Shown here one piece after another: positions 6,512 through 18,078 of a DNA stretch of 24,451 bases. The stretch's first letter is position 1. The number at the start of each line of letters is the position of its first letter. A program made the translations under genes and the position numbers. Source of the stretch: a virus (lineage: Duplodnaviria > Caudoviricetes); the IMG/VR virus record IMGVR_UViG_3300028844_000215, positions 1 through 24,451 of that record; one strand, given 5' to 3'. The notes beneath the pieces were generated by a model that worked only from the letters and a program-made list of their open reading frames with translations, did no database searches and had not been told where the DNA came from.

Positions 6512-7018
6512 CTAGCCCTTATTACCATTCCAAACATCAAAGGAACAGTTGAAAGCTATCACAGTTTTACGCTTTTTAGAGTCATTTTTTTTAGAACGGT
6601 GATACTTATATGATGGAAATATTAATATATCCCCCTCTTTTGCTTTTATTTTAGAACCATCTAAAAATTCTGTGACCATAGATTTACTGGGCATTTCTAA
6701 ATAATAAACTCCTGCAAATTGAGATTCACCATGATTATGCCATCCATGAGTATCCCCTTGATGATATTGTTGAAACCAACTTGAATGAATCCTCCAATTT
6801 TTTGAATGAAAATTTTCACATAACATAAGCATATGTTGTTTAATGTTGTCATAAAAAATATCTAAATATTCTCTTTTTACGGAAGCAGATAAATAAAAAT
6901 CAGTATGAGATATTTTATTATTCTCATGTTCAGTTAATGAAAATTTAGGAACCTTGCTAATAGCTTCTAATAATTTATTTTTTATTAATGTATGATTCTT
7001 AAGAGGATGTACCCACAT
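6512..7018 (-). CDS. Putative 2OG-Fe(II) oxygenase (TIGR02466-like)
   Basis: W-F-Q-Q-Y...H-N-H, GVYYL, GDILIFPSYKYH and a terminal R-K-T-V-I-A-F-N strand: double-stranded beta-helix with HxH...H metal ligands. Confidence 0.8.
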   Translation of the reverse strand: MWVHPLKNHTLIKNKLLEAISKVPKFSLTEHENNKISHTDFYLSASVKREYLDIFYDNIKQHMLMLCENFHSKNWRIHSSWFQQYHQGDTHGWHNHGESQFAGVYYLEMPSKSMVTEFLDGSKIKAKEGDILIFPSYKYHRSKKNDSKKRKTVIAFNCSFDVWNGNKG

Positions 7019-7677
7019 TATATTTTATATTGTCCTACTGTTTCCCCATTCTTTATTATTTCTCCATATTTACCTCTTAATATTGCATCAAATGCAAGAG
7101 TTACTCTAGATTTATTGGAGGTGTTTGCATCTACATAGTGAAATAAATAAGATGGAAACAATACTAATTTATCTTTTTCCCATATTGATTCTAAGACATT
7201 ACAGTTTATTGGATTGTATTTTTCAATAATCGGTAAATTTGGTAAAGCGTATGGTCTTAGAAATTTTAAAGGAGCAAATTCTCCAGTCTCTCCACCTAAA
7301 TAAAATACACCACTTATGAAAGTATTCATGTGATTATGTGGAGGATGATTCATCTTTTTTTCGTTTGAATTTAACCACATAGACACGATGTCTACTTTAT
7401 ATCCTTTTTTAATCTTAAAATAATTTTCTGCTAATATAGAAACGCTTAACTTTATTTTTTTTGTAAGATCTTTAAAGAAAGGATCTTTTTGTAAGTTGAT
7501 AGTTTGACCACCTTTTGGATTATAATATTTTGTTTTTTTAATGTTTAATTTATCAGACATCCCTGGATAAACTACTTCAAAGGTAGGTGTCATAAAATGA
7601 CCACATAGTTTAGGATATAGCTCCACATGTTTTGGTAGAGGCACACTATACATAAATTGTTTAGCTTTTTTTGGCAT
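7018..7677 (-). CDS. Putative 2OG-Fe(II) oxygenase (TIGR02466-like)
   Basis: MWLN...HPPHNH...ISGVFYL...LVLFPSYLFHYV...RVTLAFD. Exact start uncertain. Confidence 0.85.
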   Translation of the reverse strand: MPKKAKQFMYSVPLPKHVELYPKLCGHFMTPTFEVVYPGMSDKLNIKKTKYYNPKGGQTINLQKDPFFKDLTKKIKLSVSILAENYFKIKKGYKVDIVSMWLNSNEKKMNHPPHNHMNTFISGVFYLGGETGEFAPLKFLRPYALPNLPIIEKYNPINCNVLESIWEKDKLVLFPSYLFHYVDANTSNKSRVTLAFDAILRGKYGEIIKNGETVGQYKI

Positions 7678-7686
7678 CTTTAAAAT

Positions 7687-8301
7687 TTATTTAAAAGGAG
7701 AACCTATCGTCCACATAACTAAACTCTTTCTAGTTCCTTTTGTTACTGGTGTTACTCTATGCCATACATAAGATGGAAATATTATCAAGTCACCTTGATT
7801 AGTTAATTCAGTGGCCTTTTTAATATTATTACCTTTTTTATTATTTCTAAAATCAAACTCAAAATCACCACCTTCATATTTACTTGTATCATTTAGAAGT
7901 AAAGTACAACTTAGTTTTCTTGTCTTACCATTAAAATTAATATCATCGCTTTTATACGGTTCACTTGATTGATCACAATGCCAATCGTAATGTTGGTTCT
8001 TTTTATATATAGTATATTGAGCTTCTTCTACCCAATCAAAGTCATAATTCCAATCGGCTGCTTCATTTGCTTTTCTAACATAATATATAATTTGATCATA
8101 AATAGCTTGATCTGAAAAAAATTTTATATCTGAATTTCTTTTTTTAAATAATTTTTCTTTTTCTTTTCCTTTTTTAGGGGTTTTTATTCCGGATATAGTT
8201 CCTTTTATTGGTTTTATTTTTTTTACAATATCCTCAATCTTTTTACAAAAATCTTTATTAACAGCATTTTTAAAATACCAATATCCATGTTTATGTATCA
8301 T
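7687..8301 (-). CDS. 2OG-Fe(II) oxygenase, prolyl-4-hydroxylase/PKHD-like
   Basis: YDWHCD (HxD), RKLSCTLLLND, YEGGDFEF, IFPSYVWHRVTPVTKGTRKSLVMW (distal His and 2OG-binding Arg). Confidence 0.9.
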   Translation of the reverse strand: MIHKHGYWYFKNAVNKDFCKKIEDIVKKIKPIKGTISGIKTPKKGKEKEKLFKKRNSDIKFFSDQAIYDQIIYYVRKANEAADWNYDFDWVEEAQYTIYKKNQHYDWHCDQSSEPYKSDDINFNGKTRKLSCTLLLNDTSKYEGGDFEFDFRNNKKGNNIKKATELTNQGDLIIFPSYVWHRVTPVTKGTRKSLVMWTIGSPFK

Positions 8302-8916
8302 CTAATCTAAATCCCAACTTATAATAATTCTATCTTTTAATTTATTATTTTTCAATTCTACTTTATGTACTAAATACGATCTAAAAATTAATAACATACC
8401 TTCTATTGGTTTATAAAAACATTCAGTAAAAGAATGGTCTTTTTGTAGGTGTTCTTTACTATTATTTGCAGTTACATCAAAAGGATTTTTCATGTCTACT
8501 GGAACAGGAGAATTAAAAACTACTCTAGAATCATTGGGATCACTTTGAAGATAGTAAATAACAGAAATAGTTCTACCTAAATGAACATGGGCGTCTGCTA
8601 GATTATTTTCTTTATACCAATGAAACCACGATTCAACTGGTTTATATTTTTTTGGAAAACCATAAAAACTTGTGTACTCATTTACTCTATTCTGAATCCA
8701 TGAATTTAAATTTTTTAATTTTTTATCTTTGTGACAAGGATGAAGAAAAAAACTAGATTGACCAATAGACTTAGGACAATTAGATTTAATTTTTTCTAAA
8801 TGTTTTATTATTTGTGGAGCGTCTTTATTATGATTTTTATAAAAACTAGCTCCTATCAATGTAGGAAACCAAGCATTTATTTCTAATTCTTTTGATCCTG
8901 AATTTAATTTAAACAT
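8302..8916 (-). CDS. Putative 2OG-Fe(II) oxygenase (TIGR02466-like)
   Basis: WFPT near the N-terminus; SWFHWY...AHVH...ISVIYYL...LLIFRSYLVHKV...RIIISWD. ATG at 8916 preferred over the TTG at 8931. Confidence 0.8.
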   Translation of the reverse strand: MFKLNSGSKELEINAWFPTLIGASFYKNHNKDAPQIIKHLEKIKSNCPKSIGQSSFFLHPCHKDKKLKNLNSWIQNRVNEYTSFYGFPKKYKPVESWFHWYKENNLADAHVHLGRTISVIYYLQSDPNDSRVVFNSPVPVDMKNPFDVTANNSKEHLQKDHSFTECFYKPIEGMLLIFRSYLVHKVELKNNKLKDRIIISWDLD

Positions 8917-8988
8917 CTTTCTGTAATACAAAATTCTTCATTCTGAATTACATATAGCATGTATAGGAAAATAATCAAGTTATAGCGA

Positions 8989-16017: not shown

Positions 16018-16551
16018 TTAAACTGCCGCGCTAAACGGAGTTGCTGGTGTACCAGTACAACCAGACTCTACATCAACTTTCCATTGAGTAGAACTAATTG
16101 CAGTACATGTAACTTTTGCAAAAGTTACACCACCAGTTGTACTACCGTTTAAAGTAATAGTGTCTGATGCTGCAACAGTTTCAAAACCAACAACGTTATC
16201 AGAAGAGTCGTCAATAAATTTTGCGCCTCCAACCATAACATCGTTAGCATTTGCAACTTGTACAACAAAATCTCCAGTCTTAGTAATTGATGCAAAAATT
16301 TCAAAACTTGCACCTATGTTACTTAGATTGTTTAGATCTGCTCCTGGTCCTGCAACTGCAGAATCAGCGTTAGCATTAATTGCTGGTAATGTGTAAGTTA
16401 CTGCACCTGCTGCATTATTGTGTACAATTCTACCCGCATGAGTAGCAACTGTTAATGAAACGCTAGCGTCAGCGTCTACAACATTAGCTGGACCTGTAGT
16501 AATAAATCCATTTTTAGATGTTACTGGTCCTTGAAACGTAGTGTTTGCCAT
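16018..16551 (-). CDS. Putative capsid decoration / minor head protein
   Basis: 177 aa. MANTTFQGPV.S.NGF...YTLPAI...TITLNGSTTGG...ATPFS. Has its own promoter and an AGGAGG RBS, suggesting high expression. Confidence 0.55.
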   Translation of the reverse strand: MANTTFQGPVTSKNGFITTGPANVVDADASVSLTVATHAGRIVHNNAAGAVTYTLPAINANADSAVAGPGADLNNLSNIGASFEIFASITKTGDFVVQVANANDVMVGGAKFIDDSSDNVVGFETVAASDTITLNGSTTGGVTFAKVTCTAISSTQWKVDVESGCTGTPATPFSAAV

Positions 16552-16559
16552 ATTATTAT

Positions 16560-16630
16560 CCTCCTAGTTATTTGAATACCGTCTCTAGGCCGTCGACTAT
16601 ACGCGTCGATATTCAATTTTATGTATAGTG
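16560..16630 (-). ncRNA. Structured 5' leader RNA (long hairpin plus two potential pseudoknots); candidate Mu-gpT-DE-like motif
   Basis: Stem UUGAAUAUCG/CGGUAUUCAA (16607-16616 with 16572-16581). The loop can pair with an upstream segment (ACUAUAC/GUAUAGU) and with a downstream segment (CCUAG/CUAGG) that overlaps the SD. Confidence 0.55.
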
Positions 16631-16635
16631 TGAGT

Positions 16636-16664
16636 ATTATATGTTATTTTTTAGTAGAGTGCAA
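16636..16664 (-). promoter_or_regulatory. Sigma70-type promoter
   Basis: TTGCAC (16664-16659), 17-nt spacer, perfect TATAAT (16641-16636), in an intergenic gap and oriented with the genes. Confidence 0.8.
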
Positions 16665-16712
16665 GAGAGCCTGTAGTGTGGAGTGGATTTTTTCCAACGA
16701 TGTAGCTTTTTA

Positions 16713-16922
16713 TTAAGTAGCTACTGAAACTTGTGGAGCTGATCCTTCGACAGTATTCTGTCTGTGGGCAATAGCTGCTTCTTCCAGCTTGATCTTTGTA
16801 ATGACTTCTCTAACTTTGTCATCAATTCTGACCATTTCAAGAGTATACTTATCATTAGATAGATGCTCTTGTTCCCACTTCAACTCCAAGGACCTTTTTT
16901 GTTTGTAAAGGTCTTGTATCAT
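16713..16922 (-). CDS. Small helical hypothetical protein
   Basis: 69 aa. ATG with GAGGT RBS. Overlaps the upstream ORF by 68 nt. Confidence 0.65.
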   Translation of the reverse strand: MIQDLYKQKRSLELKWEQEHLSNDKYTLEMVRIDDKVREVITKIKLEEAAIAHRQNTVEGSAPQVSVAT

Positions 16923-17109
16923 TTATAACCTCTTCATAAGTTATTCGATAAGGAAAGTTTCTAAACATTCCCGATTTTTCCCAAACTATACTATTTTCTC
17001 CTAGCTTGTCAACTATTGATTGCTCTAAAGAAATGGCATCATCTTTAGATTCTACTTCAAATCTACCGTGATGATCATAAGCATATATGTTTATTAGGAA
17101 TTTTTTCAT
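16855..17109 (-). CDS. Small hypothetical protein
   Basis: 84 aa. ATG lies just after the post-capsid hairpin; weak RBS (GAAAG). Confidence 0.6.
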   Translation of the reverse strand: MKKFLINIYAYDHHGRFEVESKDDAISLEQSIVDKLGENSIVWEKSGMFRNFPYRITYEEVINDTRPLQTKKVLGVEVGTRASI

Positions 17110-17132
17110 GGTTTTATCTTTCTATTTATTAA

Positions 17133-17159
17133 TTGTGGCGAGACTATGTCCCGCCACAA
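17133..17159 (-). terminator. Intrinsic terminator-like hairpin after the major capsid gene
   Basis: - strand TTGTGGCGGGAC-ATA-GTCTCGCCACAA: 12-bp stem with a G-U pair that forms only on the - strand, 10 nt after the stop codon, with a short AT tail. Confidence 0.7.
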
Positions 17160-17169
17160 AAATTAAGTA

Positions 17170-18078
17170 TTAAGCTCCTGGAGAACCGAAGATACCTCTA
17201 GGGTCAGATACGCCAAATACGTATCTTTCTCTAGCTTTGTATCTAACATTACCAGTATCGAAATCACCTTCCATTTTAGTAGTCAATGGAGATCTTTCGA
17301 AATGTTTCATACCATTTGGCACATCTGTAGTAATGAAAAACGCGTCAGTGTCTGTTAAGAAATTATTAACAGAGTATCCTTGAGGAATCATCCCCATAGA
17401 TCTGATTGCGTTGATATCATTATCAGCAGTTCCAACTCTACCAGCAGAAGCCATAAGTCTTTCCGCTGTGAATTGTAGTGCAGATGGGATGATCATCTTA
17501 ACAGCTTTTGCAGCGATCTTTAAACCTCTTTCATCAGTAAGAGCAGCAATGTCAATCATTGATTGCTCTAGTGAAGTTTCGTTTAAGTCCGCAGCAGTTG
17601 TCAACGTATTCTGGAAAGTTCCAGCAATAGTTGGGTGAGCTGTGTTGAAAAGAGTTACACCATCACCAGAAGTGAAAGTACCGCCAGGCATTCCATTATT
17701 TAGTGGGTTAACTGCTTTAACTTGTTTAGTTTGAGCCATAGATCTTGCTAAAGCTTTTGTGTATCTAGAAGCAAGTCTGTCATACAGGTTGTCTTCAATA
17801 GCTTCCTCAGTGATAGCAAACGCTAACGCAATTGTTTCGTTAGTGTATCTAGCTGTGAAAGTTTCTTGAGCTTGATCGTATCTTACACCAGAACCTTCCG
17901 GTTTAACTGATGCTTGAGCGAATCCTGATAACATAACTTCTTCTTCAAAAGCTCTGTCAGATGACTCAGTAGTATAAATTTCAGCTGACTGATTTTCATA
18001 CTGTTTATATTCCAGGCCGAATAAAGCATTCAAACCTGGCTCTAGTTCTTTAACTAGTTGATTACGTGATATAGCCAT
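17170..18078 (-). CDS. Major capsid protein (HK97 fold, Mu gpT-like family)
   Basis: 302 aa. MAISRNQLVKELEPGLNALFGLEY...SDRAFEEEV...ITEEAIEDNLY...DFDTGNVRYKARERY.FG.SDPRGIFGSPGA. GGAGG RBS and a downstream terminator. Confidence 0.9.
   Translation of the reverse strand: MAISRNQLVKELEPGLNALFGLEYKQYENQSAEIYTTESSDRAFEEEVMLSGFAQASVKPEGSGVRYDQAQETFTARYTNETIALAFAITEEAIEDNLYDRLASRYTKALARSMAQTKQVKAVNPLNNGMPGGTFTSGDGVTLFNTAHPTIAGTFQNTLTTAADLNETSLEQSMIDIAALTDERGLKIAAKAVKMIIPSALQFTAERLMASAGRVGTADNDINAIRSMGMIPQGYSVNNFLTDTDAFFITTDVPNGMKHFERSPLTTKMEGDFDTGNVRYKARERYVFGVSDPRGIFGSPGA

Follow-up and report, generated by a model that had tools for sequence, protein, structure and literature searches.

A leader RNA with a three-GAC junction before a putative capsid decoration gene of HTVC023P-type pelagiphages, and its probable kinship with Mu-gpT-DE

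The gap upstream of one structural gene in a 24,451-nucleotide (nt) viral DNA stretch (IMG/VR record IMGVR_UViG_3300028844_000215, referred to here in its full length as the window) carries a leader RNA absent from Rfam, an uncatalogued relation of the orphan motif Mu-gpT-DE. Its core, as read from sequence comparison, is a pseudo-three-fold three-way junction in which arm 1 is a long stem and arms 2 and 3 are mini hairpins. The RNA displays unusually strong covariation, and it belongs to a group of phages, the HTVC023P type, for whose structural genes RNA-level control has hardly been described.

Capsid identity and gene order mark the window as a fragment of an HTVC023P/HTVC027P-type pelagiphage; an HTVC010P-like identity was rejected. 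The major capsid protein, of the Mu-like gpT family (17170–18078, minus strand; PHROG 371, E 5e-27; Pfam Mu-like_gpT, 25.5 bits, above the cut-off), is 83% identical to the capsid protein of HTVC027P and 75% identical to that of HTVC023P, and the order of genes is that of these two cultured phages. PMC9599517 describes HTVC023P-type pelagiphages as among the most abundant marine phages. The capsid gene lies upstream of the leader RNA, and in the window genome two small ORFs separate them. The leader itself fills the gap before the gene for a 177-aa all-beta protein (16018–16551, minus strand, with its AUG at 16551–16549), a predicted trimeric capsid decoration or spike protein in which a conserved N-terminal peptide is set on a swappable C-terminal domain. 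The corresponding products in the cultured phages are HTVC023P gp41 and HTVC027P gp62. All leader features described below are on the minus strand.

A double pseudoknot on a three-GAC junction

An earlier note, made from the letters of the window alone, had read three helices in this gap, and all three are present. The 5' tail (16623–16629) pairs with the loop of arm 2 as the 5' pseudoknot, ACUAUAC (16629–16623) with GUAUAGU (16602–16596), in seven Watson-Crick pairs. The long stem P1, which is arm 1, joins its 5' strand (16607–16616) to its 3' strand (16572–16581) in ten pairs, one of them U-G, and ends 21 nt before the AUG. The 3' pseudoknot pairs CCUAG (16589–16585), in the loop of arm 3, with CUAGG (16567–16563) in the 3' tail, and thereby covers the first three bases of the Shine-Dalgarno sequence AGGAGG (16560–16565); this helix is weak (−4.7 kcal/mol as a duplex). 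None of 5,000 mononucleotide shuffles of the 81-nt leader contained all three helices. The plain folding energy of the leader is unremarkable (z −0.12 to −1.12), because ViennaRNA cannot fold pseudoknots, and the evidence is comparative.

What that earlier reading lacked, and was found here, is the core. Three GAC triplets (triplet 1, 16605–16607; triplet 2, 16592–16594; triplet 3, 16581–16583) form a ring: the first triplet pairs its G with the C of the third and its C with the G of the second, and the C of the second pairs with the G of the third, so that an A is left unpaired at each corner. Arm 2 (16594–16605) is a mini-stem of C16605–G16594 and G16604–C16595 around the loop 16602–16596, and arm 3 (16583–16592) is closed by C16592–G16583 around the loop 16589–16585. 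The triplets are the invariant letters of the leader RNA; triplets 2 and 3 are each unchanged in 68/68 aligned sequences.

Homologues were collected as 80 loci by way of the downstream protein and with two degenerate DNA patterns, at 120 loci each; the patterns are estimated to match ~2,000 and ~3,000 stored stretches, some share of them by chance. A descriptor search over this material yielded 148 distinct instances, 138 with both pseudoknots perfect, and removal of four repeat or chance matches left 144 for an alignment-free test. The complement of an instance's own loop strand was found in its own flank in 141/144 cases on the 5' side and 140/144 on the 3' side, with 16 and nine different loop strands tested, respectively. 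Foreign loop strands matched in 55/2,160 and 25/1,152 trials (about 2%). When 68 representatives out of 143 are aligned by sequence only, changes on both sides are seen in 18 of the 21 pairs; the covariation score is 0.717, compared with 0.232 after shuffling and no more than 0.131 after sliding. This covariation spans the three helices of the earlier note: in P1, eight of nine counted pairs change on both sides and 95.8% of cells are paired, and in the 3' pseudoknot three of five pairs change on both sides and 99.7% of cells are paired. The 5' helix is lower in this alignment (74.5% paired) because MAFFT misregisters ~17 sequences. The junction-adjacent pair of arm 2 is paired in 68/68 aligned sequences (U-A 55, G-C 13), and over 221 leaders it occurs as U-A 114, G-C 43, A-U 34 and C-G 30 times; the closing pair of arm 3 rests on invariance and one compensatory case (U-A in phage 023Pt_psg01). 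At P1 positions 2–7 of the 144 instances, G-U oppositions outnumber A-C oppositions 85 to 3, which points to a single strand of this sense.

To keep the search patterns from biasing the result, a descriptor that fixed only the middle A of each triplet (N-A-N, three times) was run on 131 distinct leaders, which came from 253 loci selected through the protein alone. The junction is present in 113 of these leaders, 111 times as GAC/GAC/GAC and twice with compensatory letters: AAC/GAU/AAU in phage 023Pt_psg01 and UAC/GAC/GAA in phage DSL-LC04, both fully compensatory. In the shuffle control, three GAC triplets were found in 1/655. The same descriptor found no junction in the other 18/131 leaders, all from one capsid clade; in 17 of them the gene stands close behind the capsid gene without such an element, and in one (L430) the triplets are present and the stem is weak.

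The 221 leaders fall into subtypes: 171 with long P1 and both pseudoknots, 29 with short P1, and the rest lacking one pseudoknot. The 5' pseudoknot is absent in about 45/221 leaders that keep the junction, and the junction persists in copies where both pseudoknots are lost. In two loci (L097 and L134) the 5' pseudoknot is degenerate, and junction, P1 and 3' pseudoknot are intact. The two pseudoknot helices also trade sequence between subtypes, a CUAG-type helix being 5' in most (as in L085) and 3' in the window's subtype (16629–16563), which is in keeping with the junction's pseudo-symmetry. Swapped pairings within one leader occur in 0 and 3 of the 144 instances, and no conserved alternative pairing was found among them. 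The competing hairpin that the earlier note pointed out does exist in the window (five pairs, 16609–16605 with 16597–16593), but it is not conserved: across 221 leaders, five pairs form in five, four pairs in four and three pairs in 36. Hence there is no conserved, family-wide switch of this kind, and since the swapped pairings are absent and the competing hairpin is private, any switch would be between folded and unfolded states rather than between two folds.

Our covariance model, R2, finds one copy in the window. It scores 63.8 bits in HTVC023P, 50.7 in HTVC027P and 64.3 in DSL-LC04, the cultured carriers of the double-pseudoknot leader, and gives no match in Roseobacter phage CRP-902. The model misses the GC-rich and short-P1 subtypes and therefore under-counts the family. 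Three pattern matches were set aside as chance: L616, and also L572 and L663, each within a long reading frame resembling a terminase gene.

Promoter, ribosome-binding site and downstream protein

The earlier note had also placed the first base of the RNA at a predicted transcription start, and the promoter-like sequence seen by eye agrees with this. A −35-like hexamer TTGCAC (16659–16664) is followed after 17 nt by a −10 hexamer TATAAT (16636–16641), which ends 6 nt before 16629; transcription is predicted to start at this position, and the 5' pseudoknot strand begins with it. The promoter was not listed by a consensus scan, because its −35 hexamer matches at only 3/6 positions. Among double-pseudoknot leaders, 81/160 have a −35-like hexamer 29–30 nt before the first paired base, in a sharp peak, and 92/160 combine a −10 hexamer 5–9 nt before that base with TT[GC] 16–18 nt further up; A/T richness makes the −10 signal on its own less sharp. 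We infer that transcription starts at the first paired base. Metatranscriptome contigs, which carry no strand, start or level, cover the leader locus among the 4 runs compared of 23 listed, one exact contig spanning 16137–16602. In three other loci (L094, L102 and L321) and many of their relatives, the promoter is built into the terminator of the capsid gene, 30–40 nt before the RNA, with the −35-like hexamer within the terminator hairpin and TATAAT after the T run, at 17 nt spacing.

The overlap with the Shine-Dalgarno sequence seen in the earlier note holds for the window, but only for part of the family. The last helix overlaps the Shine-Dalgarno in 79/171 double-pseudoknot copies and lies 0–6 nt before it in the other 92, and it ends 6–19 nt before the AUG. 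In the short-P1 subtype, which is RF03012-like, P1 itself covers the Shine-Dalgarno in 29/29. As far as these sequences tell, the two subtypes keep the link to the ribosome site by different means.

Every true copy of the RNA precedes a gene of the capsid decoration or spike type. Bacterial genome assemblies contributed 59 pattern matches, of which 12 show the fold; each of these 12 is followed by a decoration-type gene, and they are probably phage contigs in metagenome bins. The exceptions in the viral scans come down to chance matches or to divergence of the conserved N-terminal peptide. When the first 18 residues are removed, the 161 complete proteins behind the junction fall into 23 groups. 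The codons of the shared N-terminal peptide vary synonymously, which indicates constraint on the protein. The downstream gene thus behaves as a cassette, with one N-terminal peptide and 23 groups of C-terminal domains of about 60–300 aa, and its locus is a hypervariable capsid-surface locus. Among these groups, the second in size has a match to a cement protein of known structure (7EEL chain H, E 1.1e-5), which we take to be that of phage Pam1. Pam1-type cements, as described in PMC9698820, form trimers that sit on three-fold axes and have an extended N-terminal loop.

The window's own 177-aa protein has no match in Pfam, PHROGs or PDB sequence searches. Its AlphaFold monomer is all-beta and modest (pLDDT 61), and Foldseek finds no PDB match for it at E≤0.001, the best match being a Pseudomonas phage capsid spike (E 3.6e-3, TM 0.34). 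Modeled as three copies, a number that was imposed, it scores 0.95, whereas the best control reaches 0.00; at least 94% of contacts are reproduced between runs, pLDDT is at least 91, and residues 1–24 are in the interface. In calibration, the 0.95 mark was reached by 20/30 proteins solved as self-pairs and by 1/23 solved as single chains. The window's product is thus predicted to be a trimer. N-terminal peptides behind the junction more often carry basic residues (91/129 versus 9/34), an excess to which we give no weight because the second set holds false pattern matches and kin share sequence; 38 of the 129 distinct peptides behind the junction have neither K nor R at the tested positions.

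Relation to Mu-gpT-DE and other known RNAs

The earlier note had suggested that the RNA might be Mu-gpT-DE, a motif reported downstream of gpT-like capsid genes. No Rfam family matches the window at its gathering score, and over 16450–17200 only chance matches appear at E≤10. The Mu-gpT-DE model itself (RF03012, gathering threshold 49 bits) has no match in the window at E≤10, and likewise none in 20 related loci and 49 records, whereas positive controls match at 52–72 bits. Of 12 regions it matches one, in Roseobacter phage CRP-902 (72.3 bits), and it matches 9/20 loci chosen to span subtypes, and RF03012 and R2 do not find each other's RNAs. The window RNA is not a member of RF03012 as modeled, but very likely a homologous sibling at the same locus; the lead is supported in kinship and corrected in membership.

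The likenesses are considerable. RF03012 has the three GAC triplets with the G1–C3 and C1–G2 pairs, two of the three closing pairs being in the Rfam structure; in CRP-902 the motif likewise has a gpT-type capsid gene in front of it, and the gene that follows it encodes the shared N-terminal peptide; and forms intermediate between RF03012 and the window RNA exist. The differences are in what surrounds the core. RF03012 is 53 nt long and ends at the AUG; it has two helices, its Shine-Dalgarno lies in an outer stem of 4 pairs, and its arm 2 is longer. In the window RNA, by contrast, P1 has 10 pairs, the other arms are mini hairpins and each tail takes part in a pseudoknot; the short Shine-Dalgarno-holding outer stem is lacking, and the ribosome site is reached by a pseudoknot. 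The tail pseudoknots and the third closing pair are missing from the annotation of RF03012; the original description of the motif (PMC5737381) may note them. On the sequence comparison, then, the catalogued Mu-gpT-DE covers one narrow subtype within a broader family of three-GAC junctions.

Other known leaders resemble it less closely. In phage T4, gp32 is a repressor of its own mRNA and acts by way of a pseudoknot in the leader (PMC535899). Like the window RNA, the gene 32 operator is a phage mRNA leader pseudoknot upstream of a ribosome-binding site, and the window shares with autogenous translational operators of this type a structured leader in cis before the putatively regulated gene. It differs in that the T4 operator consists of one small pseudoknot and an A/U tract without structure, and its ligand is a nucleic-acid-binding protein, whereas the window has a three-way junction before a virion structural gene and a partner that is putative. 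Translational riboswitches with pseudoknots, of the preQ1 and SAM-II/V types, act through a ligand-stabilized helix at the Shine-Dalgarno. Such a helix in the window RNA would work likewise, but this RNA matches no Rfam model of these, has a different fold and lacks a metabolic gene context. Models of small self-cleaving ribozymes in Rfam (HDV-like, twister, pistol, hatchet and hammerhead) gave no match.

In the literature on Mu-gpT-DE, HTVC010P, the HTVC023P capsid and the junction, we found no description of this leader RNA, although its double-pseudoknot form may be among the unnamed of the 10,000 viral RNA candidates in PMC10690425. In Synechococcus phage MinM2 (L324:1530–1632), the position upstream of a homologous cement-like gene is taken by a different GC-rich stem-loop, and a stretch of its loop is complementary to the ribosome site.

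A possible translational operator and its alternatives

Comparison of homologues argues firmly for five helices, three unpaired A residues, a fixed place before one class of gene, and a last helix near the AUG. The reading that we favor, with a probability of roughly 45%, is that the leader RNA is a translational operator bound by surplus, unassembled trimer, which would shut its own ribosome-binding site. The junction with its two pseudoknots would form at the predicted 5' end of the spike mRNA, and the weak helix at the ribosome-binding site would stay open unless something stabilizes the junction. Because that helix would need a stabilizing partner, binding would mean OFF, and the three-fold form of the junction suggests a partner that is itself three-fold. 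This could be the gene's own trimer, acting through the shared N-terminal peptide. The same peptide might otherwise dock on the capsid, in which case spike synthesis would track the supply of empty capsid sites. T4 gp32 and its leader pseudoknot (PMC535899) offer a precedent for such self-repression.

Several observations speak against a trimer operator. As the proteins form 23 groups beyond their first 18 residues, only a short peptide could be a shared reader. This N-terminal peptide is not an obvious RNA-binding motif, given the 38/129 that have no K or R where tested, it also occurs behind 17 leaders without the junction, and some junctions precede strongly diverged N-terminal peptides. 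The two compensatory junction variants do not clearly track peptide changes, and in 92/171 double-pseudoknot copies there is no overlap with the Shine-Dalgarno. The want of a conserved alternative pairing and the imposed number of copies in the complex prediction weigh against it as well. A more specific idea, which we regard as doubtful, is that the junction mimics the three-fold vertex of the capsid, so that a trimeric decoration protein would read the message by symmetry and count free capsid sites; this would also give Mu-gpT-DE a function.

Alternatively, the junction may fold by itself and need no ligand, shielding the 5' end from nucleases and setting a fixed, lowered translation that tunes the ratio of spike to capsid. 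The coincidence of the first paired base with the predicted transcription start is in line with this, as are the want of a conserved alternative fold and the frequent absence of the RNA from leaders without a promoter of their own. We nevertheless consider it unlikely, since it leaves three invariant unpaired A residues unexplained while every helix varies freely, and the 5' pseudoknot is dispensable in the junction-keeping leaders counted above. Improbable, too, is an operator read by some other protein, be it the major capsid protein, a scaffold or a host factor, that would couple spike synthesis to head assembly. The junction does stay constant while the downstream protein swaps, and the capsid gene is the constant neighbor; however, close capsid relatives within one clade occur both with and without the RNA.

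A riboswitch, in which a small molecule or metal ion in the three-A pocket would close the helix at the ribosome-binding site, would account for a compact multi-helix junction with pseudoknots adjoining the Shine-Dalgarno at the 5' end of a message. It seems less probable again, given that in the 59 genome matches and the viral scans the RNA occurs only before phage structural genes and never before metabolic ones, that no Rfam riboswitch matches, and that few bases beyond the triplets are invariant. The small ribozyme raised in the earlier note, which would process the 5' end of the message, has in its favor a double pseudoknot at the transcript end, as seen in several small ribozymes. It is very improbable: no Rfam ribozyme model matches, the strand order departs from the familiar topology of HDV-like ribozymes, both pseudoknots can be lost with the junction staying, and cleavage at a transcription start has little to cut. 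A DNA-level element (an extruded junction, or a recombination or packaging signal) bordering a swappable gene cassette would suit the hypervariability of the downstream gene beyond its first codons, but is scarcely credible in view of the 85-to-3 ratio on the sense strand and the tight spacing to promoter and ribosome site.

If the junction does mimic the capsid vertex, it would be an assembly-sensing switch common to some of the ocean's most abundant viruses. The role of the orphan is directly testable, as cultured carriers exist (HTVC023P, HTVC027P and DSL-LC04, and CRP-902 for the sibling), and the symmetric A-triad junction is a compact target for structure work.

Some further features of the window were recorded, all on the minus strand. 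Immediately before the promoter is a conserved 40-aa ORF (16713–16835), a homologue of HTVC027P gp61. Its tail is near-invariant, small and hydrophobic, ending …VSVAT, or …HLYAG in a second group, and presumably resembles a C-terminal protease degradation tag. A strong sigma-70-like site (17012–16985, 11/12 matches) is located inside an 84-aa ORF (16855–17109), ~150 nt before the 40-aa ORF, and may drive that small gene. Farther along, four successive ORFs of 168–219 aa (6512–8931) have motifs suggestive of 2OG-Fe(II) oxygenases.
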